A stretch of DNA of 64,000 nt from an uncultured Mycoplasmatota bacterium (GTDB lineage: Bacteria > Bacillota_I > Bacilli_A > RF39 > UBA660), in the NCBI GenBank assembly GCA_947056845.1, contig CAMSCJ010000001.1, forward strand, positions 96,442 to 160,441, given 5' to 3'. Below the pieces are notes generated by a model. The model searched no databases, was not told the DNA's origin, and saw only the letters and a program-made list of their open reading frames with translations. Both the position numbers and the translations under genes were made by a program. Shown here piece after piece: positions 3,622 to 33,163 of this stretch (positions are counted from its first letter, which is position 1; each line of letters begins with the position of its first letter).

Positions 3622-5202
3622 TTAATCAATCCATTTAACGGTTTGTTTTTCTAAATGGTAATAATCTAAATACCATGGTTCAACATAAGAAAAATCTTCT
3701 GGCATGTGAAAAGCATATTGGGGGTATTTTAATTTTTTTAAATAAACATCGATTGCTAAAGTTCGGTCAACATTATTAATAATATTTAGATTATAATCAA
3801 AAATCTTAGAATTTTCATGATAATAATAAATACATTTTGAAAAATTAAAAATATTAAATAAAACAAACAAACCAATTAGACTATATTTAAAATAAGGTAA
3901 TTTATCATTATGATATTTCTTAACAATGATAAAAATGATAAGCATGATAAGACCTAATAACCATTGTATATTTAAAATACAAATCCATAAAATAAATATT
4001 TTCAATTGATTATCACCATTATAATAACTATAAAATACATAAATTAAAAATAAAACAAGTAATGGAAAAAAGAATCTATAAGCTGTGTATTCGATTAAAA
4101 TAATAGATGTTAAATTAGCTACAATTCCTCCTAAAAGTAAATATCCTAGTTCAATATTATAATCCATTTTAATGATAAAGCAAGCATAAATATTAATAAA
4201 TAAATAGATTAAAAATATTATATCTATTAGTAAAGGTAATTGATTAAAATCAATGAAACGATAAATTGATATATTTATAAATATAAGGCAATTTATAATA
4301 ATTAGATATATACTAGCAATTTTATTAATGTTATTTTTTGCTTGTAAAAGGTAATATGTTAAAATCATTGACATAATAAATAAAATTGGTGTAAAACTAG
4401 AAGAAAATAAGTAGCCAAAATAATCTGGTAATTTGATAATAAATTTTTCAATAATATTAGCTTCAAAAAATGTTAATTCTTGCTTCGACAAGCGATTAAG
4501 ATTTCCTGGGATAAAATAACTACTAGTTAGCATTATTACAGAAAAAAACAAGAAAATTATCATTTTTTTATTAATATTCTTCTTTAATATATTATGAAAA
4601 TTAATCATAAATAAAAATACGACAATTAGTACAGTTGTACTTTCCATAGTGAAATTAATAATTGTAAAAAATATAAGGCTTAAAATAAATCGCAAAACAG
4701 TATAATTTTTATTATTAATACAATAATCTAAAATAAAGTAGATAATTAATAACATTGGTATATAGGCCCATAAATATAAAATAGTTCCATCAGCCCAGTA
4801 TAAAAGTTCATTAAGCATACTTATATTTAATCCTAGAATAATTAAAGTAATAAAGAAAGTTATTTGTAAAGTATTATGTTGTTTTTTAATGTTAATTATT
4901 TTAGCTATATAGAAACAGAATAAAAACAAAAATAATGGATTTAAAATTCTAAAAAACTGGATACCAAACCAATATAGGCCACTAGTGACAACCGCATGAC
5001 CGATTAAACGTCCCGACCAGTTTTTAAAATAAAGTATATAAAGATAGTCTAATAGACTATTACTTTTTCTTAAGAGTGCAACTATATTATAATCATCAGC
5101 ATACATTTGAACATTTTGCATTTGAATAAAAAATAATAAATAAACAATTATTAATAAAAGAGGATATTTATATCTTTTTATAAAATTAATTATTTTTGCC
5201 AA
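3622..5202 (-). CDS. Large polytopic membrane protein (12 or more TM helices), function unknown. Possibly a GT-C-like glycosyltransferase.
   Basis: 526 aa, almost entirely hydrophobic helices. No catalytic motif recognised. Confidence 0.4.
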   Translation of the reverse strand: MAKIINFIKRYKYPLLLIIVYLLFFIQMQNVQMYADDYNIVALLRKSNSLLDYLYILYFKNWSGRLIGHAVVTSGLYWFGIQFFRILNPLFLFLFCFYIAKIINIKKQHNTLQITFFITLIILGLNISMLNELLYWADGTILYLWAYIPMLLIIYFILDYCINNKNYTVLRFILSLIFFTIINFTMESTTVLIVVFLFMINFHNILKKNINKKMIIFLFFSVIMLTSSYFIPGNLNRLSKQELTFFEANIIEKFIIKLPDYFGYLFSSSFTPILFIMSMILTYYLLQAKNNINKIASIYLIIINCLIFINISIYRFIDFNQLPLLIDIIFLIYLFINIYACFIIKMDYNIELGYLLLGGIVANLTSIILIEYTAYRFFFPLLVLFLIYVFYSYYNGDNQLKIFILWICILNIQWLLGLIMLIIFIIVKKYHNDKLPYFKYSLIGLFVLFNIFNFSKCIYYYHENSKIFDYNLNIINNVDRTLAIDVYLKKLKYPQYAFHMPEDFSYVEPWYLDYYHLEKQTVKWID

Positions 5203-5485
5203 GATTTTTTTCCATCTTTCTTAATATAAAATAACGACATTCATAAGCGCAATGTTCTTTTATATATTCCTGGTGATTAGAGAAATCATTAATTTTATTA
5301 CATTTTTTATTTCCAGTCTTATAAAAGCCTTTTAAACGTAATTTACTATAAGCCCAATCACCAATAATATAATCATAATCATAAAAATAGTCAGTATATT
5401 TATGCTTGGTTTCCTCATAATCAAAACCATCTTTATAATTTTCTAGTAATTCATATTCTATATTTTCTAATACATACTTTTTCAT
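5186..5485 (-). CDS. yutD: YutD-family protein (DUF1027)
   Basis: DYDYIIGDWAYSKLRLKGF and C...YFILRK motifs match the B. subtilis YutD family. Confidence 0.55.
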   Translation of the reverse strand: MKKYVLENIEYELLENYKDGFDYEETKHKYTDYFYDYDYIIGDWAYSKLRLKGFYKTGNKKCNKINDFSNHQEYIKEHCAYECRYFILRKMEKNLGKNN

Positions 5486-5487
5486 AT

Positions 5488-7179
5488 CTAATACTCCTTT
5501 TGAAAAGATGGGGCTATATACTTATATTTTACCAAACTTGAACCAGAATTCCAAGTCATATAACCACCTTTTAATCCAGCATCATATAATCCTTGAATTT
5601 GATCAGATATTTTAGATGAATCATAAACAATATATGGGCTTTTTATTGTATCATAGGCTTGTACCCAAGTTCTGACAATTGCTGGAGTTGGAATTTCTTT
5701 TTGACGATTCGCAGCGTAGGTACCCCAAGTATACATAAGTTTATAAGGAACAGTCCAAACAACTTCTGAAATACCAAAATCATGAGCATTAAAATGATCT
5801 GGATATGGCATAGCGCTAATTACATCGACGACATTTGATATGCTTGGCCAGTACTGCCCATAAGCAGCTACATAAGTATAAGCTGACTCTCCGAAAACAT
5901 CGGCCGATACATAGGCCCCAACAGAGTGTATTTCATCACAAGCATACATTAAAAAACGTTGAATAGCTTGAGCCTTTTCCTCACCATAATCATTTCGCAT
6001 ATTCATAGTTCCATTTTCTTCTAATTTATAAGTACGGTCTGGGAAACGTACATAATCAAACTGAATTTCATTAAAACCCATTTCTGTAACAGCTTCTTTT
6101 GCTAATTTAACATTAAATTCCCATACCTTACGTTGATAGGCACTAGGCCAATAGGAACCATTATGTGAAAATAAAGCTCCATTTCCACTATTGACAATCG
6201 CATATTCGGGATGATCTTGGGCAAAATACTGGTCTTTAAAAACAGTAATTCGCCCAATTACATAGAACCCATTATCTTTTAATTTTTTAATAACAGCTTG
6301 ATAATTTTCAAAAGAGTTAATCGCATAGCGATAATTAGTTGGTGATAACTCCTCCATAATTTTTGATGCATAAGCAGGAGCTCCACTATCCTTAATATCA
6401 ACAACGAAAGCATTTATATTACTCTGTTTAGCTAAAGCAATATACTCATCAATATTTCCTAAAACTCCACCATTTAAATATAAACTTCTAACTTCATTAG
6501 GCATTACGTTGTTATCAAACACAGGTTTTTGATAAGGAAAATAGTCTAAATTACCACCCGATCCTCCACCATATATATCAGCCCTATTTAAATGAATTTG
6601 ATAATTACCATCTTGATCATAATTTTGATTAGCCTCTTCTATTGTTTTAACTGTATATTTTTGATAAATATAACCCTCAATATCATTATATTTTATTTTA
6701 TATTTTGAAACATTTCCATCGCTTAAAAATTTATCAAAACCAATTATTTCTATTTTTTCACCCTTTTTAACTATGCCTAAAATATCAACATTTTCACTAT
6801 CTTTATAGATAGAAGCTGGTGTTCTAACAAAACGTTCAGTCTCTAATACTGTATTTTGTAGTTCATCTACTAAATCATTTTTTAAAATTAAGTACTCTTT
6901 TTCGTTATAAATGATTTTAACATAAATATTATTATCTTCTTCGTTGTTTTCATTAGTTAAATCCTTAAAAAAAACTTTAACTTTTGTACCCCTAGTAATT
7001 GTCTCTACTTTGTTATATTCTAAATCATATAATTGAACAGTTAAGTCACCACTAGCAACATACATATCATTTTCAACTATTTTTTCAGGGATTATTTTTT
7101 TAAAGAATATATTTTTAATTGTAAAAAATAAACTTACTATTATTAAAATTGTTACAATAAATATTACTACTTTTTTCAT
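5488..7179 (-). CDS. Putative glycoside hydrolase of the GHL10/DUF4015 (YngK-like) family, with a TM anchor and SH3-like N-terminal repeats
   Basis: N-terminal TM, then the conserved block NAFVVDIKD...FDYVRFPD...VSADVFG typical of the YngK/GH114-like hydrolase family. Confidence 0.5.
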   Translation of the reverse strand: MKKVVIFIVTILIIVSLFFTIKNIFFKKIIPEKIVENDMYVASGDLTVQLYDLEYNKVETITRGTKVKVFFKDLTNENNEEDNNIYVKIIYNEKEYLILKNDLVDELQNTVLETERFVRTPASIYKDSENVDILGIVKKGEKIEIIGFDKFLSDGNVSKYKIKYNDIEGYIYQKYTVKTIEEANQNYDQDGNYQIHLNRADIYGGGSGGNLDYFPYQKPVFDNNVMPNEVRSLYLNGGVLGNIDEYIALAKQSNINAFVVDIKDSGAPAYASKIMEELSPTNYRYAINSFENYQAVIKKLKDNGFYVIGRITVFKDQYFAQDHPEYAIVNSGNGALFSHNGSYWPSAYQRKVWEFNVKLAKEAVTEMGFNEIQFDYVRFPDRTYKLEENGTMNMRNDYGEEKAQAIQRFLMYACDEIHSVGAYVSADVFGESAYTYVAAYGQYWPSISNVVDVISAMPYPDHFNAHDFGISEVVWTVPYKLMYTWGTYAANRQKEIPTPAIVRTWVQAYDTIKSPYIVYDSSKISDQIQGLYDAGLKGGYMTWNSGSSLVKYKYIAPSFQKEY

Positions 7180-16912: not shown

Positions 16913-18112
16913 TTATACAACACATATTTTCTGTCCCAAAGAAAAAACTAATTTTTTTCCTTCTTTTTTATCTTCAGCATCCTTTAGAGCTTGTTTAAGA
17001 AATGTTTTAATTTCCTTATCAACAATACTAAGCTGATGAGAAAAACTTTTATTACTATCAAAATCTAAAGCACATTTAAAGTATAAAAAATCTAATACAT
17101 TTAGTTTAGTATGACTATCTAGATTAGGAATATCTAAAATATTACTTGTATATAAAGTTAATTTATTAAAAATTTTCTCAGCCTGCTTTAAATCTTTTAA
17201 TTTTAAACCAAAGTCTTTGATCTGCATGGCCAATTTATAATAAGCTAACTTATTAGCATAAATACCTGGATATTTTTGAATAGAATCTATCATTATTTGT
17301 CTTTCTAATGAAATCATTTCACTAAAGGTTTCGTTATTAAGATTTATTCTTTGATGAACTTTAAATACATCTTGAGACTCTACTGGTTTATCTATAAGAT
17401 TTTCATAAAATATATTACAACTGTATGGACCATTTAACAAATCTTTATATAAAAAGTCTAACACATTTAGTTTAATATAACTATCCAAATTAGGAATATC
17501 TAAAATATTATTTGTATATAAAGTTAATTTATTAAAAATTTCCTCAGCTTGCTTTAAATCTCTTAATTTTAAACCAAGACCTTTGATCTGCATGGCCAAT
17601 TTATAATAAGCTAACTTATTAGCATAAATACCTGGATATTTTTGAATAGAATCTATCATTATTTGTCTTTCTAATGAAATCATTTCACTAAAGGTTTCGT
17701 TATTAAGATTTATTCCTTGATGAACTTTAAATATATCCTGAGCCTCTACTGATTTATCTATAAATGATTTATAAAAATTATCTAAGTAGTCTATTTTAGA
17801 AGAATATCTTGAATTATTATCAATATATTTTTTTGATTGATAAAGTAAATATATAAAATCATTTTCTATTTGTTCTTTATTAAGGAAAAGCCCCATATCC
17901 TTTAAAACAACTGATAATTTATAATATAAATATTTGTTATTAAATAAAGTTCTAGTTCTAAAAAAGGAATTAATCATTAAATTATTTTCTAATTCAATTA
18001 TCTCTTTGGGGGCAATATTAAAATTATTGATACTTCTATATACTTTTAAAACATCACCTGCAACTACATTGTCATATAATGATTCCCATATATTTACAGA
18101 TATTTTATTCAT
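16913..18112 (-). CDS. Hypothetical protein containing a 122-aa tandem internal duplication. The track ORF extends to TTG 18136.
   Basis: Long ORF with two near-identical 122-aa blocks. No conserved domain recognised. Confidence 0.55.
   Translation of the reverse strand: MNKISVNIWESLYDNVVAGDVLKVYRSINNFNIAPKEIIELENNLMINSFFRTRTLFNNKYLYYKLSVVLKDMGLFLNKEQIENDFIYLLYQSKKYIDNNSRYSSKIDYLDNFYKSFIDKSVEAQDIFKVHQGINLNNETFSEMISLERQIMIDSIQKYPGIYANKLAYYKLAMQIKGLGLKLRDLKQAEEIFNKLTLYTNNILDIPNLDSYIKLNVLDFLYKDLLNGPYSCNIFYENLIDKPVESQDVFKVHQRINLNNETFSEMISLERQIMIDSIQKYPGIYANKLAYYKLAMQIKDFGLKLKDLKQAEKIFNKLTLYTSNILDIPNLDSHTKLNVLDFLYFKCALDFDSNKSFSHQLSIVDKEIKTFLKQALKDAEDKKEGKKLVFSLGQKICVV
17068..17770. repeat. Tandem direct repeat of about 366 bp, two copies at about 95% identity, inside the hypothetical gene
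   Basis: About 17068..17405 versus about 17432..17770 share long identical stretches (for example ctgcatggccaatttataataagctaacttattagcataaatacctggatatttttgaatagaatctatcattatttgtctttctaatgaaatcatttcactaaaggtttcgttattaagatttattc). Confidence 0.8.
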
Positions 18113-18148
18113 ATTTTTTTTATAACCTTCTTTCAAAGCCGCTTTTCC

Positions 18149-18687: not shown

Positions 18688-20820
18688 TTATGGAGGACAT
18701 GTTTCTATTTCTAGTTTACTATTTTTAATTTTAATCATAATGCTTCCATCCAAATCAGTTCTATATACTCGAGATTTTTCTAAGTTCTTTAATACTTCAT
18801 TATTGGGATGTCCGTATCTATTATTTTTTCCAACAGATATTATTGAATACTTTGGTTTAATATAATCAATAAATTCGCGACCACTACTTGTTTTACTTCC
18901 ATGATGCCCTACTTTTAATATGTCAATATCTTCTAAATTATATTTTTTTATTAAATTATTTTCTACATCTATACTGGCATCCCCCATAAATAAAAATTTA
19001 TAATTGCTGATTTTAGTATAAATCACATTAGAATTATCATTTTCATTATCATAAGTTTTATGGTTTAAAAAAGATAATTTATTATTATTTATATTTAGCT
19101 TCTTTATATTTTGATAATATGGAATATTATTTTCTTTTAAAATTTTAATAAGCTCCAATTCTAATTCGTTATATTGGTCACTATTAAGAATAACTTTATT
19201 AATATTAAAATTATCTATTAATTTTTGAGCTTCACCAGCATGATCATAATCTCCATGGCTTAAAATTAAATAATCTAACTTTGTAATTCCTAATGATTTT
19301 AAATAAGGAATAGTTTTGTTTTTTACAATTGAATATTCATTTGTTTTTAATAGTTGATTATCATACTTCAATATCCCACCTGTATCGATTAAAATATTGC
19401 CATTATTATGGGGTAAAATAATTAATATACTATCACCTTGTCCAACATCAAGTACTGTAATAATTGGATATTTATTAAATAATTGGATATTATAGTGAAT
19501 TATTAAAATGGGCACTAATATTAAAATACTATAATATTTTTGTTTTTTAAATAGGAATAGTATTAATGTAATTACTAGATAATAGCCAACAAAGCAATAG
19601 ATATTTATTTTGCACAAAGTGATTACTAAAAGATTTATTTTTGAAAAAAATAATGACATATTTTCTAAGATATTAATCATAATTGCTAATATAGGACTTA
19701 ATACAGGAAAAATGAAAGTTATTAATGTTATAGGAAAAATAAAATATGCGACAAATGGTACAAAGATTAAATTTAATATAATAGATAATAAATTAATACT
19801 AAAAAAATTATTAATAACGATTGGCAAACTTGCTAAAAATGATATGATTGAAGTCATTAGTAATTTGATAAAATAATTATTATGTTTATTTATTATCTCA
19901 TTAAAAAGAATTAAATAAAAAGTAATTATGAAGCTAAAAATAAAGCCTATACTATGAATATAAAAAGGATTAAAAGCAAGTAAAATAATGCAAGTTAAAA
20001 TTAATAAATTAATTGTTTTTATATTAAGTCTAAATAGTTTATTTATAGAAATTAAAATAAAAAATAAAACGGTTCGCATTATTGATGGTGTAAAATTGGC
20101 TAAAAAAGCATAAATTAAAAGAAATGTTATAATAAACATATTATTAAATATATTATTTTTAGATACCTTTTTTATAATAAATAAAAGTAATGTTGAAAAT
20201 AAAGTAATATGCATACCAGAAATTGCAAATAAATGACTAATACCATTAATTTGATAACTATCTTTGATATTATCATCTATTAAACTAGTATCTCCTAAAA
20301 TAAAGGCTTTTAAATAATTAGAACCAGATATTTTGTTGATTCTAGAAATAATCATATTTTTTATTTTATAGGTAAAAGAAATATTTCTATTTATTTTTGT
20401 TATTGAAGTAGCATTATAAAGCCAATATATTTTTTGACTTTTTAAATAATTTTGATAATTAAATAAATTAAAAACAGTATTTTTACTTGGAACTACAAAA
20501 GTACCATAAATAAAAACTTTATCACCAAGTTGGTAATTATTTTTAATATTAGTTAATTCTTGTTCATCTTTTATGTAATAATTAACAAGAATTTTTTCTT
20601 TTGATTTTAATTCTAATTGGAGCTTATCTCCGTTAAATTTTAATGAATTTATAATGCCTTCAATTTTTGCCTCAGAACCATTATATTTAGATAATGGTAA
20701 ATTAATATTTTTATAAACTACATAAATAGATGTAAATAAAATTAGAAAAATATATAAATATTTAGACTGTAATACTATCCTTAATTTGTTCAAATACTTT
20801 TTCACCAATGCCTGTAACAT
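18688..20820 (-). CDS. comEC: DNA internalisation competence protein ComEC/Rec2
   Basis: Polytopic competence domain plus C-terminal metallo-beta-lactamase domain (HGDYDHAG, GHHGS). Confidence 0.85.
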   Translation of the reverse strand: MLQALVKKYLNKLRIVLQSKYLYIFLILFTSIYVVYKNINLPLSKYNGSEAKIEGIINSLKFNGDKLQLELKSKEKILVNYYIKDEQELTNIKNNYQLGDKVFIYGTFVVPSKNTVFNLFNYQNYLKSQKIYWLYNATSITKINRNISFTYKIKNMIISRINKISGSNYLKAFILGDTSLIDDNIKDSYQINGISHLFAISGMHITLFSTLLLFIIKKVSKNNIFNNMFIITFLLIYAFLANFTPSIMRTVLFFILISINKLFRLNIKTINLLILTCIILLAFNPFYIHSIGFIFSFIITFYLILFNEIINKHNNYFIKLLMTSIISFLASLPIVINNFFSINLLSIILNLIFVPFVAYFIFPITLITFIFPVLSPILAIMINILENMSLFFSKINLLVITLCKINIYCFVGYYLVITLILFLFKKQKYYSILILVPILIIHYNIQLFNKYPIITVLDVGQGDSILIILPHNNGNILIDTGGILKYDNQLLKTNEYSIVKNKTIPYLKSLGITKLDYLILSHGDYDHAGEAQKLIDNFNINKVILNSDQYNELELELIKILKENNIPYYQNIKKLNINNNKLSFLNHKTYDNENDNSNVIYTKISNYKFLFMGDASIDVENNLIKKYNLEDIDILKVGHHGSKTSSGREFIDYIKPKYSIISVGKNNRYGHPNNEVLKNLEKSRVYRTDLDGSIMIKIKNSKLEIETCPP

Positions 20821-21448
20821 TCATAATATCCTCTATTTTGGAGAAATTTCCATGTTCTTCTCGATACTTAATTATTGCTTTAGCCTTTGATTCACCAATA
20901 CCTGATAAAGATTGCAACTGTTCAAGGGTAGCTGTATTTATTGATACTTTATTAGAATTATCAATCTTATTATCAGGATTATTTATATCACTACTAATTA
21001 AACAAGCATCATTAGTAAGTTTTGGGCAATTACATTCTTTTTCAACATATTGCACCACGATATTATTACCTTTCATCGACTGGACTTCATCATGTGTATA
21101 AATGACAATAACCATCTCATCAAATAGATTTTTACTTAAATTTATAACTGAGGTATCAGCATTTTCTAACAATCCACCACTTTTGTTAATGGCATCAATC
21201 ACCCTTTCCCCACTAGAAAAACTATAAACGCCAGGATTCACAACTGCCCCTTTAATATTGACTTTAATATCATTAGAGATTTTTGTTTCAATTTCTTGAT
21301 CATTTATTAATAATTCTTCAAATGTATCGTTAGGCGATTTATTTTTAATATTAACTAAATAAAGAATTACTAATAATATAATTAAGGGTCCTAATATAAC
21401 TAATGCCTTTCGATAATATTTTTTTATGTATATCATTTTATCACCCAA
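20762..21448 (-). CDS. comEA: Competence protein ComEA (SLBB plus tandem helix-hairpin-helix)
   Basis: N-terminal TM, SLBB domain, C-terminal HhH (LQSLSGIGESKAKAII...VTGIGEKV). Overlaps the comEC start. Confidence 0.8.
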   Translation of the reverse strand: MGDKMIYIKKYYRKALVILGPLIILLVILYLVNIKNKSPNDTFEELLINDQEIETKISNDIKVNIKGAVVNPGVYSFSSGERVIDAINKSGGLLENADTSVINLSKNLFDEMVIVIYTHDEVQSMKGNNIVVQYVEKECNCPKLTNDACLISSDINNPDNKIDNSNKVSINTATLEQLQSLSGIGESKAKAIIKYREEHGNFSKIEDIMNVTGIGEKVFEQIKDSITV

Positions 21449-24980: not shown

Positions 24981-25877
24981 ATGGAAAGCAAAATTATAAA
25001 AGGTTTAAACCTTTCAGAAGATAATATGATAAATATAAGTTTTTATAAAGAACCGATAACAATTAGTGAAATGCAACCAATATATGAAAGTGATAAGCAA
25101 AAAGTAGAGTTAATTTCTATGGAAACAGGCATACCAATAACATATATATCTAATAATGCACTCAATTATATAAGAAATTGGATTAAAATTGATAATAAAT
25201 GGTTTTTTATTAAAAAGCCAAATAGTTATTTAAAATTTTTTAACGAACTACTTGGTCAAGAAATATCTAATTACTTTGAATTAGAGAGTGTTAGTTATAA
25301 GATTGCTAAAAAATTTGAAGATTGTTGTTTTGATACTTGTTTAATGTCTGAAAACTTTTTTGATAATAATTATCGTTATTTGACTTTTGACGATTTAAAA
25401 ATTGATACATCGAATAAAAAATTATCAGAACGTTTAGATCTAATTAAACAACTATGTCAAAAAAATAATGATAAAGAATATTTATTATTGCAAGATATTA
25501 TAAAAATGAGCATTCGCGATTTATATTCGAATATGGAAGATCGACATCAACGAAATTTTTTCTTTAAAAAAGATGATAAAGAGATTAGATTAGCCCCATT
25601 ATTTGATTATGAACTTTCTTTTATGATGCCACCTACTATATATCGAAATCCATTATTAAACCTTGATATTCATGATAACAATACTAGTAATTTAATTAAA
25701 AATGATGATATGTTTCAAGAATATATAAATAAATTAATGGATATAAATATTGAGAAATTATTAGAAATTACCCAAGAAAAAAATGGTATAAATATTTCAG
25801 ATGGTCTTAGGGAAATTTTTATTAATCATGATAGGAATGCTAAAAATATAGTTAAGACTTTCTACTTAAGAAAATAG
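24981..25877 (+). CDS. Protein carrying only the HipA C-terminal domain (putative Ser/Thr kinase, CtkA/HipA_C-like)
   Basis: Catalytic-loop-like DRHQRNFFF and LAPLFDYELSF match the HipA_C D-H-x-x-N and LAPAYD signatures. No HipB-like neighbour. Confidence 0.45.
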   Translation: MESKIIKGLNLSEDNMINISFYKEPITISEMQPIYESDKQKVELISMETGIPITYISNNALNYIRNWIKIDNKWFFIKKPNSYLKFFNELLGQEISNYFELESVSYKIAKKFEDCCFDTCLMSENFFDNNYRYLTFDDLKIDTSNKKLSERLDLIKQLCQKNNDKEYLLLQDIIKMSIRDLYSNMEDRHQRNFFFKKDDKEIRLAPLFDYELSFMMPPTIYRNPLLNLDIHDNNTSNLIKNDDMFQEYINKLMDINIEKLLEITQEKNGINISDGLREIFINHDRNAKNIVKTFYLRK

Positions 25878-25902: not shown

Positions 25903-27681
25903 TAGATTATTTAAAAATTCTAATAAATTTTTAGCTACTTTTTCAGGAATAATTTTTGATAATTCTTCTATACTGGCCTCTTTCATTTTAGTTATATTGT
26001 GATATTTTTTTAATAATTCTTTTTTTCTTTTCTCACCTATTCCTTCAATATTATCTAAAGTACTAGATAAGCTACCCTTACTCCTTATTTGTTTATGATA
26101 ATTAATTGTAAAGTTGTGAACTTCATCTTGCATTCTTTCTAAATAGTAAAATAAATTGCTTTTTCTATCGATTGGTATTTCAACGATTGGATTATGAGCT
26201 AATAGTGCATTAGTAGCATGGTGATCGTCTTTTTTTAATCCCACAACAGGAATACTTAAACCAAGTGAATTAATGACTTCTCTAGCGACATTAATTTGTC
26301 CTAGACCACCATCAACAATAATTAAATCTGGTTTGGTTAAATCATCCTTTAAAACACGAAAATATCTACGGTAGATAACTTCATGCATCGTTCCATAATC
26401 ATCATTTTTATCTAGAGTTATTTTAAATTTTCGATAATCATTTTTACTTGGCTTTCCATCAATGAAAACGACCATTCCTGAAACATTGAAGGTTCCAAAT
26501 AAATGGGCATTATCAAAAAGTTCAATTCTATCTAGTTTATTTAAACCTAAAATATTTTTTAACTCTTCGTTTGCTCCAATTGTCTTTTCTTCGTCTCTTT
26601 TAATAAGTTCAAATTTTTCTTCTAATAAAATTTTCGCATTATTATTGGCCATCTCAACTAATTTATTTTTAACACCTTTTTGTGGTTTAATTATTTTAAC
26701 ATTTAAATATTCAAATAAAAGTTTTTCATCAACAATACTTGGTACAATAATTTCTTTAGGTAGTATTATACCTTTATCATAAAATGTAGCTATATACCTA
26801 TTAACTTCCGCATCTAATTCATCTATTAAAGGCATAATTTTAGAATGTTTTTCAACAATTTTTCCACCACGAATAAAAAATACTTGCATAGATAAATAGC
26901 CTTTATCTGTATAAAAACCAAATATATCGGTATTAATATTGTCTTTTATTTCAACTTTTTGTTTTGTTAAAACAAGTTTTATATAATCAAGCATCTCTTT
27001 TAATTCTTTAGCTTTTTCATAATTCATATTTTCACTTTGAAGATACATTTCATCTTCAATTTTTTTAGTTATAAAACTATGATCACCATTCAAGAAATGA
27101 ATTATTTCATTTTTTATTTGATCAGTTATTGTTTTATCAATCTTATACTGACAATATCCTAAACATTCGTGAATATGGTAATATAAGCAAGGTTTCTTAT
27201 CAAATGTCTTACATTTACGTAAAGGATATAATCTATTTAATAAATTAACAGTATTCCTTGCAGCTGTAACATTTGGATAAGGTCCATATAAATTAGTATT
27301 TTTTTTTCGTTTACGATTAATATTTCTAACAATTGATAATTTTGGTATATCCTCATTTATAAATTCAATATAAGGATAACTTTTATCATCACGTAATAAA
27401 ATATTATATTTAGGGTCATATTTTTTAATTAAATTATTTTCTAAAATTAATGACTCAATTTCTGATTCAACAACAATATATTCAAAATCAACAATTTCAC
27501 TAACTAGTTTAGCTGTTTTTCCAGTATGAGTCCCTCTAAAATAAGAACTTAAGCGTCGTTTTAATCTTTTAGCTTTACCAACATAAATAATTACACCATC
27601 GCAATTTTTCATTTGGTAACAGCCTGGTTTTTCAGGTACTAAGCTTAATTTTTGTTTTATTTTTTGATTTATTTCATCCAT
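25900..27681 (-). CDS. uvrC: Excinuclease ABC subunit C
   Basis: GIY-YIG N-terminus (GCYQMKN...IIYVGKAK), UvrBC motif, C-terminal HhH (GIGEKRKKELL). Confidence 0.9.
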   Translation of the reverse strand: MDEINQKIKQKLSLVPEKPGCYQMKNCDGVIIYVGKAKRLKRRLSSYFRGTHTGKTAKLVSEIVDFEYIVVESEIESLILENNLIKKYDPKYNILLRDDKSYPYIEFINEDIPKLSIVRNINRKRKKNTNLYGPYPNVTAARNTVNLLNRLYPLRKCKTFDKKPCLYYHIHECLGYCQYKIDKTITDQIKNEIIHFLNGDHSFITKKIEDEMYLQSENMNYEKAKELKEMLDYIKLVLTKQKVEIKDNINTDIFGFYTDKGYLSMQVFFIRGGKIVEKHSKIMPLIDELDAEVNRYIATFYDKGIILPKEIIVPSIVDEKLLFEYLNVKIIKPQKGVKNKLVEMANNNAKILLEEKFELIKRDEEKTIGANEELKNILGLNKLDRIELFDNAHLFGTFNVSGMVVFIDGKPSKNDYRKFKITLDKNDDYGTMHEVIYRRYFRVLKDDLTKPDLIIVDGGLGQINVAREVINSLGLSIPVVGLKKDDHHATNALLAHNPIVEIPIDRKSNLFYYLERMQDEVHNFTINYHKQIRSKGSLSSTLDNIEGIGEKRKKELLKKYHNITKMKEASIEELSKIIPEKVAKNLLEFLNNL

Positions 27682-27774
27682 TTAAATCACCAACTAATTT
27701 TATTATACCATGGCATAAGAAAAAAGAATTAAAATTAATCCTCTTTTCTTCCTATTTTCTTAACTTTTACCTTT

Positions 27775-28115
27775 TTAAAATCTTCTCCACCATCAGCAAT
27801 ACGTTGACTGCGAATTAATTTTGCAGCATCATAATAAGATATAAATGCTTCATCTATATTTATTGGTTTCATAATTGAAACCCTAACTTCACCACCATTA
27901 TATTTATCAGTATCCCACTGATTATAGAGCCCATATTCTATATTAGTTAAAATATCAACACAATTTGCATTATTATTTTTTTAACTAATACATAATCACC
28001 AATAGTAAGTTTTTTTCCCTATAATTGCATCGTTATCAACTTCATCAACTATTTCAATTAAACGACTCATATATAAGTCTTTCGTACTAATATTTTTTAT
28101 ACTCTTGTCATTCAT
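27775..28115 (-). pseudogene. ORF of about 113 codons broken by two homopolymer-A frameshifts
   Basis: MNDKSIKNISTKDLYMSRLIEIVDEVDNDAIIGKK / LTIGDYVLVKK / NNANCVDILTNIEYGLYNQWDTDKYNGGEVRVSIMKPINIDEAFISYYDAAKLIRSQRIADGGEDF is readable only by shifting frame at A7 runs. Could be sequencing error rather than decay. Confidence 0.3.
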
Positions 28116-28178
28116 AAATTTATTTCCCCTTTAAAATATTACCTATTATAACATCTAATTTTAGTTATGTAAATAATA

Positions 28179-28224
28179 TTTTATAAATAAACAATTGAAA
28201 CTTTTATAAATAAACAATTGAAAC
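28179..28224 (+). repeat. Two perfect tandem 23-bp direct repeats (TTTTATAAATAAACAATTGAAAC) abutting the -35 of the promoter below
   Basis: 28179..28201 and 28202..28224 are identical. Each contains the CAATTG palindrome. Confidence 0.8.
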
Positions 28225-28227
28225 TTT

Positions 28228-28256
28228 TTGACAAAAGTAGCTAAATATGATAATAT
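28228..28256 (+). promoter_or_regulatory. Near-consensus sigma-A promoter (TTGACA, 17 nt spacer, TAATAT)
   Basis: TTGACAaaagtagctaaatatgaTAATAT. No protein-coding gene follows on the plus strand for about 400 nt. Confidence 0.55.
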
Positions 28257-28262
28257 GAATAT

Positions 28263-28385
28263 GTCAAGGCAACTTGAATATAATAAAAAAGGGAAATACT
28301 TAAACTTAGCACGTTGAGTACTTACCCAAAGTTATTTGTTTAAGTACTTAATCTACGTAAGGTAAATTGAGTACTTTTCTTTTTC
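28263..28385 (+). ncRNA. Candidate small RNA of about 120 nt (type I antitoxin-like) with three AAGTACTT palindromes
   Basis: Transcript predicted from the promoter at 28228. Copies at 28315-24, 28341-50 and 28367-76 can pair 1:2 or 2:3, with 16-nt loops in both cases. The 2:3 hairpin is followed by UUUUCUUUUU. Fully antisense to the 3' end of the convergent peptide gene. Confidence 0.3.
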
Positions 28386-28392
28386 ATAGTTA

Positions 28393-28476
28393 CTAGATTA
28401 CAAAAGTAAAAAGTAGGGCTATATGTAAAAGGATAATTAAAATCAAAGCAAAAATTAAAAAGTCTTTCTTAGACAT
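28393..28476 (-). CDS. 27-aa hydrophobic peptide (candidate type I toxin)
   Basis: MSKKDFLIFALILIILLHIALLFTFVI, a single TM helix. Strong SD GAGAGGAGG 8 nt upstream of the ATG. Not in the ORF track because it is under the size cut-off. Confidence 0.4.
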   Translation of the reverse strand: MSKKDFLIFALILIILLHIALLFTFVI

Positions 28477-28656
28477 AATTATCAGCCTCCTCTCATAAGA
28501 AAATCGGCAAGTACCCAACAATTAGTATTTCCTAAACACATTATACTACTTGTTAACAATCTAAATAATTAAATTTTTAATTATAAATTTATACTAACTA
28601 TTATATATAATTTGAAAAAATAAAATAAATCATATATAATTATAACGGTGATTTAA

Positions 28657-29250
28657 TTGAAAACAATCAAAAAAAACATAACTAATGAAATTATAGTAAA
28701 TAAATCAAAATTTATTACTAAATTAATAAAAATTAATAATGAAGAAGAAGTTAAAAACAAACTAGATTTTTTAAAGAAAGAATATAAAGATGCAACCCAT
28801 CACTGTTACTCATATATTACTGGTAATATAAAAAGATTTAATGATGACGGAGAGCCAGGGGGAACCGCTGGTATGCCTATTTTAAATGTCTTAGAAAATA
28901 ATAATTTAACAAATATTTTGGCTGTTGTTATTAGATATTTTGGTGGCATTAAATTAGGAGCTGGTGGTTTAGTTAGGGCATATACTAAAGCTATAACAGA
29001 ATGTTTAAATAATATAGAAATAGTTAATTTAACTAACGGCATAAATTTTAAAATTGAATTTTCTTATGATAACATCAAAAAAATTGATAATATTTTAAAA
29101 GATACTAAAATTACTTATAAAGAATATGATAACAATATTATTTATGAATGTAGTTTGACTATAGAAAATTTTGAAAAAATAAAAAAAGAATTAGAAACTA
29201 ACTCTTTAAATTTAGAAATATTAAATGAAACATTAGTCGAAATTGATTAA
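28657..29250 (+). CDS. yigZ: YigZ/IMPACT-family protein (UPF0029), with TTG start
   Basis: Conserved NDDGEPGGTAGMPIL and YFGGIKLGAGGLVRAY motifs. Confidence 0.8.
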   Translation: MKTIKKNITNEIIVNKSKFITKLIKINNEEEVKNKLDFLKKEYKDATHHCYSYITGNIKRFNDDGEPGGTAGMPILNVLENNNLTNILAVVIRYFGGIKLGAGGLVRAYTKAITECLNNIEIVNLTNGINFKIEFSYDNIKKIDNILKDTKITYKEYDNNIIYECSLTIENFEKIKKELETNSLNLEILNETLVEID

Positions 29251-29262
29251 TGTTTTTCTTTC
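29133..29262. repeat. Direct-repeat copy 1 (about 128 bp): the authentic 3' end of yigZ
   Basis: About 98% identical to 29987..30118. Confidence 0.85.
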
Positions 29263-29278
29263 AATTTACAATATATTT

Positions 29279-29581
29279 TTACTTAAATAATTCACTATGA
29301 CTTCCAGTTGCAAAAAGCAATAGAATTAATGAATCGTCTTCAATTTTATAAACTAAAAGCCAGTCTGGCTCAATATGGCATTCATAACAATCTTTATACA
29401 TTTTATTATTTATAAGATTATGATTTTTATATTTAGACGACAATTCTTGACCATTTGCTAATACATTAAGAACGTCTAAAAATTTATTTTCATCTTTACC
29501 TTGTTTCAAAACTTTTTTAAAATCCTTTTTAAATTGACTGGTAAATTTTACTTCATACTTTGTACTTTGCAAATTAAACAT
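29279..29581 (-). CDS. yafQ: Type II toxin, YafQ/RelE family
   Basis: HIEPDWLLVYKIEDDSLILLLFATGSHSELF matches the YafQ signature H..PDWLL.Y...LVL.RTGSH.DLF. Confidence 0.8.
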   Translation of the reverse strand: MFNLQSTKYEVKFTSQFKKDFKKVLKQGKDENKFLDVLNVLANGQELSSKYKNHNLINNKMYKDCYECHIEPDWLLVYKIEDDSLILLLFATGSHSELFK

Positions 29582-29872
29582 TTATTTTTTTAAATCCTCA
29601 ATCATTTCATACATATTATGATAGCCTTTTGCCTTTATTTTTCCATTTAATATATTTTCACCATCTTGTAGTGCTTCTAATAAATGTTCACTAGGTTTAG
29701 GATTTTTAACCTCAAATGGTAAACCATCTTTATATATCAATTGTTTAATAGCCATATTTACAAATGTACTCATATTAAGTCCTAAACTTTTTAAAATTCC
29801 ATTTGCAACTTCTTTATCATGATTATCTACTTGAACACTAATTGCGCTTGTCAATGGTTCCATATTCTCCAC
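29582..29872 (-). CDS. dinJ: Type II antitoxin, RelB/DinJ family
   Basis: 96 aa. Ribbon-helix-helix-like N-terminus (SVQVDNHDKEVANGILKSLGLNMSTFVNMAIKQLI). Its stop abuts the yafQ start. Confidence 0.8.
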   Translation of the reverse strand: MENMEPLTSAISVQVDNHDKEVANGILKSLGLNMSTFVNMAIKQLIYKDGLPFEVKNPKPSEHLLEALQDGENILNGKIKAKGYHNMYEMIEDLKK

Positions 29873-29888
29873 CTCTTTTTCTGAATTA

Positions 29889-29934
29889 ATATTACCATAT
29901 AATATTGTATGTTGTCAATATAATATTATATGGT
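29889..29934 (-). promoter_or_regulatory. Promoter and operator of dinJ-yafQ: TTGACA-18-TAATAT flanked by a 13-bp inverted repeat
   Basis: ACCATATAATATT (29894-906) and AATATTATATGGT (29922-934) bracket the -35 and -10. Typical autorepression architecture. Confidence 0.5.
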
Positions 29935-29986
29935 ATCGATATGGCATTATAAGCATATTCAATAATATTATATGCAGAATAAAAAA

Positions 29987-30118
29987 ATATATTATTTATG
30001 AATGTAGTTTGACTATAGAAAATTTTGAAAAATTAAAAAAGAATTAGAAACTAACTCTTTAAATTTAGAAATATTAAATGAAACATTAGTCGAAATTGAT
30101 TAATGTTTTTTTCTTTTG
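29987..30118. repeat. Direct-repeat copy 2: a duplicated yigZ 3' end downstream of the TA cassette
   Basis: attatttatgaatgtagtttgactatagaaaattttgaaaaa...ttagtcgaaattgattaatgttttt is repeated 854 bp downstream of copy 1. Confidence 0.85.
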
Positions 30119-30508
30119 AAATGAATTTGCACTATCATTATTCACTGTATCTTTGTCACAATTTGCATTATTTATTCGGTTCAATAATTCAGCAGCCTCA
30201 CTATATGTGATATATGGTGCTGAAATAGAAATTGGAATAGTTGCATTAATGAAAAAATCTCCAATGTTACAATCATCAAATTCAAATTTATAGATGTTTT
30301 TGGTAAAAATATCTTGATAACAATTTTTTCTTATTTTTTTGACCAAGATGACTTTTTTTATAACCTCAAACTCATAGTGATATAAAGTACTGAAAAAAAA
30401 ATATTTATTGGGAATCGATTGTTTTACAACACAATACCTTAAAGCAGAATAATAAAGATTTTTTGTTGATATTTTTTTATTAAACCAATTTTCAAACATA
30501 TTAATCAC
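30086..30508 (-). CDS. Hypothetical protein. Its last 8 codons lie in repeat copy 2.
   Basis: 140 aa, no recognisable domain. Confidence 0.45.
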   Translation of the reverse strand: MINMFENWFNKKISTKNLYYSALRYCVVKQSIPNKYFFFSTLYHYEFEVIKKVILVKKIRKNCYQDIFTKNIYKFEFDDCNIGDFFINATIPISISAPYITYSEAAELLNRINNANCDKDTVNNDSANSFQKKKTLINFD

Positions 30509-30522
30509 CTATACTCATTACA

Positions 30523-30927
30523 TTATAAAGCATTTATAAAATCAATTATCTTAGGAACGAAGATAATTGAGCCTGCAATCGCAGCTGTAATAGCAAAAAC
30601 GAAAACAGCAGCTGAGGCTGTATCTTTAGCAATTTTAGCTAAAGGATGAATTTTGGGGCAAGTTAAATCGACAACTGCTTCAATAGCTGTATTAATAAGT
30701 TCAGTCGCAATTACTAATCCACATAAAATTGTACAAATAATCCATTCCATTAATGATATTCTTAAGATAAGTCCAAATATAATTACAAAACATAGCATAG
30801 TAAGATGAATGAACATACTTTGTTCATATTTATAAGCATATTTTAGTCCTTCTATCGAATAGCCAAAACTTTTAAAAAATCTTTTTAAGCCTCTTTTTTT
30901 TTGCTCATCGCGTGATGCCGAATCCAT
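30523..30927 (-). CDS. dgkA: Diacylglycerol/undecaprenol kinase DgkA family
   Basis: 3 TM helices. Conserved E..NTAIE motif. Confidence 0.8.
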   Translation of the reverse strand: MDSASRDEQKKRGLKRFFKSFGYSIEGLKYAYKYEQSMFIHLTMLCFVIIFGLILRISLMEWIICTILCGLVIATELINTAIEAVVDLTCPKIHPLAKIAKDTASAAVFVFAITAAIAGSIIFVPKIIDFINAL

Positions 30928-31351
30928 TTAATATCTCCTCCTGTTTTGCAAACATTACTTTTTCTTCTTCTTCTTTTATATGATCATAACCTAAAAGATG
31001 TAAAAAACCATGTATCATTAAAAAGCAAATTTCTCGTAAATTACTATGGCCATATTCTTTAGCTTGTTCATAGACTTTATCAATAGAAATATAAATATCA
31101 CCTAAAACGCGCAAATCACTTTCAATTAAATCTTCATTATCTTCTAAAGCAAAACTGATAACATCAGTTGGTCGATCAATTCCTCGATATTCTTTATTTA
31201 ATTTATGAATATATTTATTATCAACAATGATAATATTAAAGATAACATTTTTTATTTTTTCATGTTTTATGGCATATTCAATTAAATCTTTCATCGTTTT
31301 AATATAGTCTAAATCAATACCTGTTTCATTTATTATTTCCACATTATTCAT
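30905..31351 (-). CDS. ybeY: Endoribonuclease YbeY (16S rRNA 3' maturation)
   Basis: HGFLHLLGYDH zinc-binding motif. Confidence 0.9.
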   Translation of the reverse strand: MNNVEIINETGIDLDYIKTMKDLIEYAIKHEKIKNVIFNIIIVDNKYIHKLNKEYRGIDRPTDVISFALEDNEDLIESDLRVLGDIYISIDKVYEQAKEYGHSNLREICFLMIHGFLHLLGYDHIKEEEEKVMFAKQEEILNGFGITR

Positions 31352-31965
31352 AAAATACCACCAATATTTATAAAGTTAAACAAATATAAAATTATTAAAA
31401 TTATTATGATAATTACACAAGAATTTAAAAACAATTGACTTCTAAAAAAACTTGGTAGATGATTTTTTATTTTATTCAAATATATAAATATATAAAATCC
31501 TAGCATGCCTCCCAAAATATTAAGCATAATATCATCAATATCAAATACTCGCCCAATTAACATCTGTGTTACTTCAATAGAAATTGATGTAATTAAACTT
31601 AATATCAAGCCAACATACCATTTTTCGCTTCGAACATAATATCCAACAAAGAAGCCGTATGGTAAGAACATGAGCATATTTCCTAAAATATTTTTAATAA
31701 ACAATTTGCTCCCAAATTCATAACGCATAATTTCCCTAAATGGTACAAAATTAGAAGTACTCCAATCAACGTCCTGAAAAGTTACAACATAAAATAAAAA
31801 CATGATATATAAAATGAAACCAAGGGTTAATAATTCTTTATATAAAACAAATTTTATTTTGTTGTGAATTATATAAGTAATTCTCAATGAGGAAACAATA
31901 ATAGTGAATAGAAATAATGTTGGCCACACATTAGATAATAATTCGATAATTGTTTTTTGTAACAC
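31348..31965 (-). CDS. VanZ-family membrane protein
   Basis: 4 TM helices. NFVPF and EVTQ motifs of VanZ-like proteins. Confidence 0.55.
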   Translation of the reverse strand: MLQKTIIELLSNVWPTLFLFTIIVSSLRITYIIHNKIKFVLYKELLTLGFILYIMFLFYVVTFQDVDWSTSNFVPFREIMRYEFGSKLFIKNILGNMLMFLPYGFFVGYYVRSEKWYVGLILSLITSISIEVTQMLIGRVFDIDDIMLNILGGMLGFYIFIYLNKIKNHLPSFFRSQLFLNSCVIIIIILIILYLFNFINIGGIL

Positions 31966-31969
31966 AACA

Positions 31970-33163
31970 TCACTCCTGTTCTTGCTCCTCCAAACTAATA
32001 TTATCTATAACTTGATAATCTGTTATATCTTCATAGACGGAAAAAAACATTTCTAATTCTATTTTACTCTCTTTTATATCAACTTTCAAATCTTTTGAAG
32101 AAATTATATATTCTTTGTCATTCAATTTACTTTCCATAGCTTTAATACTTTTTTCTCTAGCAATAGCAATGGCCTCATCAATTGTATATATTTTGTCGGT
32201 TTTTTCCACCTCTCGCTGATTTTCATATACAAGGCTAATTGGCAAAAAATTGTGACTTAATAACTTTTTTTCTTCAATTTCCTTATTTTCAAATTTATGA
32301 AAATTGAATAATTCAAATCGTTGATTTAAAAATTTGAGCGTTAATACCTTTTTAGTATTTGCCGTATAATTTTCCTCATTATAAACAAAAGGTATTTCAA
32401 CTTTACTCTTATACCATACTTCACCATAAACACTACCTTTAGCCGATACAACATTTTTTAACGTTTCATTTAAATAGACACTGCCTGACACAATAATATC
32501 GCCTGGTTTAACATAGTCATTAATATTTTTAACAACGACTCCATTTTCCGCAATAATTGTTTTAATCACTGCCGATTTTTTTGCAACAATATTTCTATTT
32601 TCCTCCTTTTCATTAGTAATTGGTATTTTCCTTTCCTCTACTCTAACAATATATTTAGTTCCACTCCGTTCAATTTCAATCCATTCTAATTTATCCTTAT
32701 ATTTATTTAAAATTTCTTCTTTTATTTTTTCGATATCTTTAAAACTTTTAACAAATTTCTTTTCGGTTATTCCATATTTTTTCAGTTCACTAATCAATAA
32801 CTCCTGAATTTCCTTTTTATTATGGACCACTTCAACATCAAAAATAATATTTGTGAGTAGTAATAGAAAAGCAAATCCTATAAACATAAAAAATAATAAT
32901 ATCTTATTTTTATTTAGTATTTTTTTTATTTTAATCAGACCATATATATTTACTTCTTGTAGTTCATATGTTGTTTTAATCTTTTCTACTTTTTCTAAAT
33001 CACTTTTATAAATTCTTATTTCTACTTCTTTATAATTAATATTTTTTAAATCAAGTATTTCTATATTTTGTTTAACTAAACGATTAATAAAGCGATTAAT
33101 ATTTTTACCTTTAATATTTAATTTAATAGAACTTTTAAAACTAGATAAAAAAGAATTCTTCAT
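31970..33163 (-). CDS. yqfD: Sporulation protein YqfD
   Basis: About 397 aa with a single central TM. Sits downstream of yqfC and upstream of ybeY-dgkA, the same order as in B. subtilis. Confidence 0.65.
   Translation of the reverse strand: MKNSFLSSFKSSIKLNIKGKNINRFINRLVKQNIEILDLKNINYKEVEIRIYKSDLEKVEKIKTTYELQEVNIYGLIKIKKILNKNKILLFFMFIGFAFLLLLTNIIFDVEVVHNKKEIQELLISELKKYGITEKKFVKSFKDIEKIKEEILNKYKDKLEWIEIERSGTKYIVRVEERKIPITNEKEENRNIVAKKSAVIKTIIAENGVVVKNINDYVKPGDIIVSGSVYLNETLKNVVSAKGSVYGEVWYKSKVEIPFVYNEENYTANTKKVLTLKFLNQRFELFNFHKFENKEIEEKKLLSHNFLPISLVYENQREVEKTDKIYTIDEAIAIAREKSIKAMESKLNDKEYIISSKDLKVDIKESKIELEMFFSVYEDITDYQVIDNISLEEQEQE

Follow-up and report, generated by a model that had tools for sequence, protein, structure and literature searches.

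Gene Content and Direct Repeats at the yigZ Locus

We investigated a stretch of 64,000 nucleotides (nt) from an uncultured Mycoplasmatota bacterium (GenBank assembly GCA_947056845.1, contig CAMSCJ010000001.1, positions 96,442 to 160,441), hereafter the window, in which a relB/dinJ-yafQ toxin-antitoxin operon (the cassette) lies between two copies of the 3' end of the gene yigZ. Positions below are those of the window. The intact yigZ (28657..29250, + strand) encodes a protein of 197 amino acids (aa) that belongs to the IMPACT/YigZ family, matching Pfam PF01205 at 6e-38 and scoring 175.7 bits against NCBIfam TIGR00257, above the curated cut-off of 167.95. Downstream, a convergent gene (30086..30508, - strand; hereafter the 140-aa gene) specifies a product of 137-140 aa with no Pfam or NCBIfam family. 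The direct repeat has a core of 123 nt in copy 1 (29135..29257, + strand) and of 122 nt in copy 2 (29989..30110, + strand), the starts being 853-854 nt apart. The two are identical at 121 of 123 positions, the exceptions being an A/T substitution and the loss of a single nt within an A-run; if a 2-nt indel is allowed in a T-run, the match extends by 4 nt, to approximately 29133-29262 and 29987-30118. Copy 1 is the true 3' end of yigZ and covers its last ~39 codons plus 7 nt beyond the stop. Copy 2 is an orphan yigZ 3'-end fragment, continuous with the ancestral downstream flank and frameshifted relative to copy 1; no open reading frame (ORF) is listed there. It is a pseudogene fragment, from which the 140-aa gene reads its last 8 codons and its stop codon (30086-30088). 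Elsewhere in the window there are two direct repeats of at least 40 nt, namely a 366-nt tandem repeat within one gene and the prfA/prfB paralogues.

The insert between the copies (~730 bp) consists solely of the operon and its promoter. Separate metagenome assemblies of the same species (L001, with 98.4% identity, L005 and L112) have the same arrangement, and thus the repeat-cassette-repeat structure is not an assembly artefact. Rfam gave no match at E <= 0.1 over positions 27000-32000. An exact-protein look-up found no match for the 197-aa YigZ; for the downstream product it found none for the 140-aa version but did find one for the 137-aa version, owing to the different start codon, and the latter look-up revealed no empty site in conspecifics.

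The toxin gene (29279..29581, - strand) encodes a YafQ-family protein of 100 aa (RelE-superfamily mRNA interferase). It matches Pfam PF15738 (YafQ_toxin) at 1e-30 with 106.2 bits (cut-off 30) and NCBIfam TIGR02385 (RelE_StbE) with 80.6 bits (cut-off 27.9), and it reaches 72.5 bits with the narrower TIGR00053 YafQ model, under the curated cut-off of 87.25. Structural relatives in the PDB are H. pylori HP0892/HP0894 and E. coli YafQ (4ML0/4Q2U), in which the YafQ catalytic motifs also align. In a BLASTP comparison with E. coli YafQ, residues H54, H69, D72, H95 and F99 fall on H50, H63, D67, H87 and F91, the catalytic residues of the latter. Family models and catalytic residues alike place the protein among the YafQ/RelE-superfamily type II toxins.

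The antitoxin gene (29582..29863, - strand) sits directly upstream in one operon, its stop codon abutting the yafQ ATG. Public gene calls start the protein at the ATG at 29863 (93 aa), and an alternative GTG at 29872 would give 96 aa. It matches PF04221 at 2e-8 with 34.5 bits (cut-off 22.4), TIGR02384 with 54.6 bits (cut-off 45.65) and DinJ of PDB entry 9LEW_A at 1.4e-5; family model and gene order identify it as a RelB/DinJ antitoxin. Judged from these matches, the cassette appears to be a standard, ordinary type II toxin-antitoxin operon, a new member of a well-known family. By analogy with other members, and with DinJ-YafQ in particular, the antitoxin would bind palindromic promoter boxes, repress its own promoter and neutralise the toxin, which would act as a ribosome-dependent mRNA endonuclease. 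E. coli DinJ-YafQ (PDB 4ML0, 4Q2U) comprises the same two families in the same antitoxin-first order, with the toxin immediately downstream, the conserved YafQ catalytic positions and a palindromic promoter region. In contrast, the present toxin is 35% identical to E. coli YafQ and scores below the TIGR00053 cut-off, and the antitoxin matches at family level only. Three metagenome contigs from a ~97%-identical strain (L002:1-40, L003 and L004) end at the same point within relB, at ~29799, beyond which L002 has a different sequence for the N-terminal (DNA-binding) part of the antitoxin; this points to assembly being interrupted by an allelic variant or a paralogue.

Upstream of relB, a promoter scan predicts TTGACA-18-TAATAT (29889..29918, - strand; 10/12 matches), with a TG upstream of the -10. 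The -35 hexamer stands between the arms of an 18-nt inverted repeat (29893-29910 and 29918-29935, 94% complementary) and is identical in sequence and position in three relatives that share the cassette (L010, L019 and L024). Together with a third ATAATATTATATG box at 29962-29974, this inverted repeat forms a putative operator (29893..29974, no strand assigned) with boxes spaced 21 and 42 nt, to which RelB may bind. Exact ATAATATTAT matches number six in the window, two of them in the putative operator; the total is not significant across the 64 kb (2.9 expected), and it is the clustering, not the number, that is suggestive.

These results bear out much of a first-pass annotation of the same DNA, made without database searches. 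It had described the yigZ 3' end as recurring ~854 bp downstream at ~98% identity, which holds on alignment; a complete dinJ-yafQ operon between the copies, which profile searches recover as an intact pair of RelB/DinJ and YafQ family members, above the Pfam cut-offs and those of TIGR02384 and TIGR02385; a downstream gene that takes its last codons from copy 2, where the stop codon indeed lies; and a TTGACA-18-TAATAT promoter nested in an inverted repeat, found at 29918-29889 with its -35 between the 18-nt arms.

Empty and Filled Sites in Related Genomes

To place the cassette in an evolutionary context we compared the locus with those of relatives, all of them uncultured low-GC gut Bacilli. 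A YigZ scan of species-representative genomes yielded five loci and a YigZ scan of metagenomes one further syntenic locus (L014); additional loci came from look-ups of close YafQ homologues. Orthologs of yigZ are present in L009-L014, L019 and L024. In four lineages (L009, L011, L012 and L014) the repeat occurs once and the cassette is absent, so that the cassette is confirmed as an insertion, as the first-pass annotation had proposed. In L009 a 139-aa homologue of the 140-aa gene converges directly on yigZ; since the two stop codons overlap by 4 nt, the target has no intergenic space. The flanks are collinear with those of the window, and the single copy is 93% identical to both window copies. 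In L012 and L014 yigZ likewise abuts the homologue of the downstream gene, and in L011 it faces dgkA directly. The copy contiguous with the ancestral downstream flank is copy 2, which therefore marks the ancestral junction, again as had been proposed.

In the filled sites the insert is a bare operon of ~705-730 bp in all four cassette-bearing lineages (the window species, L010, L019 and L024), and the state of copy 2 varies. L010 has a copy 2 of ~140 nt with 91-93% identity to copy 1, L024 one with an internal deletion, and L019-L023 one cut short by a deletion that also took nearly all of the 140-aa gene. The junction between cassette and copy 2, 'ATGCAGA..AAAAAAATATATT', and copy-2-specific changes are common to L010, L019 and the window, from which 9 nt are missing. 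The copy-2 fragments are thus orthologous and trace back to one duplication event.

A neighbour-joining tree of 4434 nt from the flanking genes uvrC, dgkA, ybeY, vanZ-like and yqfD groups the window with L001 and L010 with L019, and joins the two pairs, with 100% support; L024 joins next at 77.5% bootstrap. The empty L009 is sister to the cassette-bearing clade, with L011, L012 and L014 as outgroup. The cassette has co-diverged with its host. Its nucleotide identity and that of the flanks are 88.3% and 89.6% between the window and L010, 89.6% and 88.4% between the window and L019, 88.1% and 87.3% between the window and L024, and 95.4% and 92.2% between L010 and L019. Similarly, synonymous divergence (dS) between the window and the other lineages is 0.45-0.81 for relB and yafQ and 0.37-0.85 for dgkA, ybeY and vanZ. 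The ratio of nonsynonymous to synonymous divergence (dN/dS) within the cassette is 0.02-0.21 (0.02-0.07 in relB, 0.08-0.21 in yafQ). Because the divergence of the cassette matches that of its housekeeping flanks and dN/dS is low, the cassette must have entered before the lineages split; the insertion is old, not recent, and has since been passed on vertically under purifying selection.

A different scenario was implied in the first-pass annotation, namely that an actively mobile cassette was inserted recently and left the near-identical repeats as its fresh target-site duplication. The 121/123 identity of the copies, the existence of relatives with an empty site and the compactness of a cassette with its own promoter all fit this view. 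It is hard to reconcile, however, with dS values equal to those of the flanks, with the absence of terminal inverted repeats and of a transposase, and with strains 1-3% diverged, all of which carry the cassette. Furthermore, an orthologous cassette occupies the same junction in L010, L019/L020 and L024, three lineages ~12% diverged in which copy 2 has diverged or decayed. Relatives with the same duplication and diverged repeats were what the annotation itself had named as the finding that would overturn recency, and this is the pattern within the cassette-bearing clade. We thus give next to no credence to a recent event, and the idea of ongoing mobility is not upheld. One contig of the same species, L005, has a length of 878 bp, both ends in the repeat and a 25-nt terminal overlap; it was considered as an excised circle and set aside, since a collapsed assembly-graph repeat looks alike.

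Gene Conversion between the Repeat Copies

An old insertion raises the question of why the two copies are so similar, because an unconstrained copy 2 of such age should differ from copy 1 by tens of percent. Copies 1 and 2 are about 98-99% identical in the window and 93% in L010, and the window copy 2 is only 87% identical to the L010 copy 2. Moreover, derived states recur in both copies of the same genome: at least two are specific to the window (alignment columns 93 and 95) and at least three to L010 (112, 143 and 157), and in L024 both copies have 'ATTAATTGAAATTGATTAA'. The left part of copy 2 has retained older states of its own in L010 and L019, where the copy is thus a mosaic; a diverged stretch to the left of the repeat core is visible in the copy 2 of both, and the ancestral duplication probably started near 29119.

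The 98% identity in the window reflects concerted evolution by gene conversion between repeats ~730 bp apart, not fresh duplication. The first-pass annotation had taken it for a fresh footprint, a reading at odds with the lineage-specific substitutions that the copies share. In the window species the converted tract extends from 29989 to the end of the homology. The conversion is older than the divergence of the window strain from L001, in which copy 2 shows one additional difference, and a RecA-type route may be envisaged.

In an alternative scenario that needs no conversion, the same cassette would have been inserted independently in each lineage at one hot spot, each time duplicating the local sequence. 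The copies would then group by genome and not by position, as they do, and the interval between yigZ and dgkA is indeed variable, the 140-aa gene being 33-48% identical, degraded, deleted or absent among relatives. Yet the cassette junction and derived states specific to copy 2 are common to the window, L010, L019 and L024, the unconverted left part of copy 2 in L010 and L019 produces a mosaic typical of conversion tracts, and the divergence of the cassette matches that of the hosts. Repeated insertion is accordingly very improbable in our view, and we retain a single insertion followed by conversion.

Mode of Insertion

Neither the insert nor its surroundings offer an enzyme that could account for the event. 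The first-pass annotation had noted no transposase or integrase nearby, and a domain search of the ORFs from 14449 to 43010 (±14 kb) agrees, with no integrase, transposase or other recombinase domain; likewise, neither the insert nor its vicinity yielded a recombinase in the window, L001, L010, L019 or L024. The 25 longest inverted repeats listed include none between the cassette ends. With no transposase and a duplication of 124-140 bp, the locus does not correspond to a classical transposon or insertion sequence. The annotation had spoken of a "target-site duplication or recombination footprint"; the footprint of an insertion stands, but a target-site duplication of the transposase type does not, 124-140 bp being far too long.

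Elements flanked by attL/attR and devoid of an integrase are cis-mobilisable, and are left by integrative elements that target gene 3' ends. The present locus resembles them in having direct repeats at a gene 3' end around a small recombinase-free insert. It could be the remnant of a larger element that integrated site-specifically at the yigZ 3' end, provided a replacement end and was later deleted down to the toxin-antitoxin pair. Elements targeting gene 3' ends are well known to leave direct repeats (see also Furuta 2010), and a homologous cassette (YafQ 78% identical) adjoins two large serine recombinase genes at another locus, L025. Against this, the insert holds no recombinase and the repeats no att-like short identical core, a length of 140 bp is long for an att core, and both copies consist of host sequence with host-lineage-specific states over the full 124-140 bp. 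Since all four cassette-bearing lineages carry the bare operon of ~705-730 bp, with no recombinase or other foreign DNA, a deleted-down integrative element is the less likely explanation, and we rate it as improbable.

Insertions with long target duplication have been described for restriction-modification systems (Nobusato et al. 2000, Gene 259:99; Furuta, Abe & Kobayashi 2010, PMC2853133). They were recognised by a complete gene pair in an insert <20 kb with no mobility genes in or adjoining it, by direct repeats >30 bp, and by an empty-site sequence that aligns with both repeats and the outer flanks (Furuta et al. 2010, PMC2853133). We adapted these features from restriction-modification to toxin-antitoxin cargo. 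The ~730-bp insert contains relB-yafQ and the promoter only; the repeats measure 123/122 nt in the window and 140 nt in L010; and the empty site is available in L009, with its single copy 93% identical to both, likewise in L012 and L014, and in L011 with yigZ facing dgkA. On these features, 'insertion with long target duplication' is the fitting category.

The likeness to the restriction-modification cases extends to a small addictive gene pair, the lack of a mobility gene and repeats >30 bp of which the empty site holds one copy; the H. influenzae insertions among the published cases likewise have a target that overlaps a gene 3' end. Naturally competent species account for most of those cases, and the window carries homologues of the DNA-uptake genes comEA and comEC (18688-21448, 8-10 kb from the cassette), which we regard as circumstantial support only for an uptake-linked insertion. 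In contrast to those cases, the cargo here is an mRNA-interferase pair, so that the proposed double-strand-break explanation is inapplicable, and the insertion is old and fixed in several species, with repeats concerted in one lineage and decayed in others. The literature searched contained no toxin-antitoxin example of long target duplication, which is no proof of absence. A further comparison is provided by the chromosomal islet summarised in PMC7167474 and PMC3184786, also a stand-alone toxin-antitoxin pair at a fixed position between housekeeping genes and absent or decaying in some relatives. As summarised there, that islet is polymorphic within species and linked to REP sequences, whereas the present cassette is fixed and under purifying selection; the texts consulted on it mention no long target duplication.

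Taken together, we consider it likely that a single, old, recombinase-free insertion with a ~140-bp duplication was followed by vertical inheritance and, later, by conversion. According to this account, a single entry into the chromosome, in an ancestor shared by at least four species-level lineages of uncultured low-GC gut Bacilli, placed the operon where the convergent yigZ and 140-aa gene abut. A recombinase-independent event would have duplicated ~140 bp of the target, and because the duplication covered the junction both genes would have stayed intact. Indeed, since the two genes abut or overlap, only an insertion that duplicates the junction spares both, and this may be why the duplication-bearing event survived. 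Thereafter the cassette has been passed on vertically under purifying selection. The orphan copy 2, non-coding save for the last codons of the 140-aa gene, has decayed in the other lineages, and in the window species it was overwritten by the yigZ copy, giving the 98% identity.

As to the route, we infer a template switch or an illegitimate joining event in the course of repair or of DNA uptake; such joining in repair, homology-facilitated illegitimate recombination and a single crossover of a circle bearing a yigZ end would all be compatible. A first event driven by homology, either a Campbell-type crossover of a cassette linked to a yigZ 3' segment or homology-facilitated illegitimate recombination, would make one of the copies donor-derived. 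A single crossover would leave the repeat-insert-repeat geometry, comEA and comEC are present, and a tract of strain differences in yigZ stops at 29104, close to where the duplication begins on the left, as would fit crossovers at that point. Such an event nevertheless requires a donor with the cassette beside a yigZ end. No donor was identified, the closest YafQ homologues being <60% identical on known plasmids and phages and at most 57% identical in viral contigs; conversion between the repeats has also erased any donor signature in them. We therefore see a homology-driven origin as possible but rather unlikely.

Several points weigh against a single old insertion without a recombinase. The monophyly of the cassette-bearing lineages has a bootstrap of only 77.5%, and L009 could represent a secondary, precise loss via the repeats. 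Within the window species we found no presence/absence polymorphism and no sign of current excision or mobility. The mechanism of insertion is not itself observable, the ancestral junctions being too diverged for microhomology to be read. In principle the repeats allow precise excision of the cassette by homologous recombination, and only conversion products are seen; that toxin-antitoxin addiction (post-segregational toxicity) opposes deletion between them is speculative. Chromosomal dinJ-yafQ of E. coli neither prevented large deletions nor stabilised a plasmid (PMC2654758, review), and addiction as the force that prevents deletion is doubtful.

Related Cassettes at Other Sites

Elsewhere in the chromosomes of related genomes lie further cassettes, whose YafQ is 72-78% identical: by two large serine recombinase genes (L025), upstream of rimP-nusA (L027-L030) and by a DDE transposase gene (L031-L034). 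At two of these three sites (L025 and L031-L034) direct repeats of local sequence bracket the cassette, and the repeated sequences are unrelated between sites. In L025 the repeats (4493-4603 and 5468-5578) are 111 nt long with 90% identity and are single-copy in the cassette-free L109 and L110. In L031 they are 40 nt long and identical (3446-3485 and 4354-4393), and in L032-L034 they are 90-92.5% identical, a pattern compatible with conversion in one lineage. A crude test found bracketing repeats of at least 50 bits at 14 of 78 YafQ loci (four independent sites), as against 1 of 265 shifted control intervals. Bracketing repeats at other YafQ sites are a lead, not a result.

Two of these candidates were rejected on inspection. 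L025 is not a clean second case, as at least 85 nt of ancestral sequence separates the cassette from the downstream copy and the similarity outside the 111-nt repeat is not significant (equalled in score by 198 of 500 shuffles). A 32-nt repeat in L070 was rejected as a target duplication, since it probably consists of the ribosome-binding site and first codons of two apparently paralogous small genes. Also in L025 (5664-8808), yabG (Peptidase_U57) is immediately preceded by an ORF of 39-41 aa and two large serine recombinase genes in tandem. The yabG product has 154-162 aa in L025 and L110 and 244 aa in L109, and no two of these genomes agree in the DNA upstream of the small ORF; this neighbourhood may represent an element, intervening or integrative, located at a sporulation gene. 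A scan of viral contigs with the L025 serine recombinase gave no matches.

Neighbouring Sequence

Homologues of the 140-aa gene in L009, L012, L014 and L024 are 33-48% identical in amino acid sequence, against 85-97% for the flanking proteins. The gene is cut to 86 aa, and so degraded, in L010, deleted in L019 and absent in L011. To judge from these comparisons, the position between yigZ and dgkA seems subject to very fast evolution or replacement. On the other side of the cassette, differences between the window strain and L001 are dense in yigZ, with 25 in ~440 nt (28668-29104), and the next one occurs only at 29642. The limit at 29104, not far from the left end of the ancestral duplication, may be the boundary of a recombination tract. 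The intergenic region between uvrC and yigZ contains a perfect 23-nt tandem duplication (28179-28224; TTTTATAAATAAACAATTGAAAC, two copies), which is present once in L001. A 127-aa ORF (27735-28118, - strand) that is intact in L001-L004 has two stop codons in the window after small indels, and is there either a strain pseudogene or a sequencing error. Adjoining uvrC, a 298-aa ORF (24981-25877) has a weak HipA_C-like match of 23.1 bits, below the Pfam threshold of 30.5; it may encode a further toxin-like kinase, or the match may be due to chance. Further away, the 366-nt tandem repeat (17082-17747) comprises two copies 94% identical inside a 407-aa ORF (16913-18136) with no Pfam match.

Implications for the Spread of Toxin-Antitoxin Systems

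How toxin-antitoxin systems move and integrate has been described as unelucidated (Fraikin et al. 2020, PMC7167474, review). The yigZ locus provides a natural series, with an empty site and the same insertion in four lineages, in which copy 2 ranges from freshly homogenised through diverged to internally deleted or truncated. The mode of insertion belongs to a category already described, and nothing at the locus is mechanistically unexpected. Since gene conversion resets repeats, near-identical flanking repeats are an unreliable sign of a recent event. As a tentative generalisation, which we hold with little confidence, the long-duplication route might be a general entry path for addiction modules, independent of DNA cleavage by the cargo, with the repeats then kept alike by conversion and loss through them selected against. 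At this locus, a bare toxin-antitoxin operon would seem able to insert without a recombinase, with a ~140-bp duplication, and to persist under purifying selection across species-level divergence. 'Insertion with long target duplication', known from restriction-modification cargo that cleaves DNA, would thereby be extended to a toxin that cleaves RNA, and the idea that DNA breakage by the cargo itself drives such insertion would be weakened.

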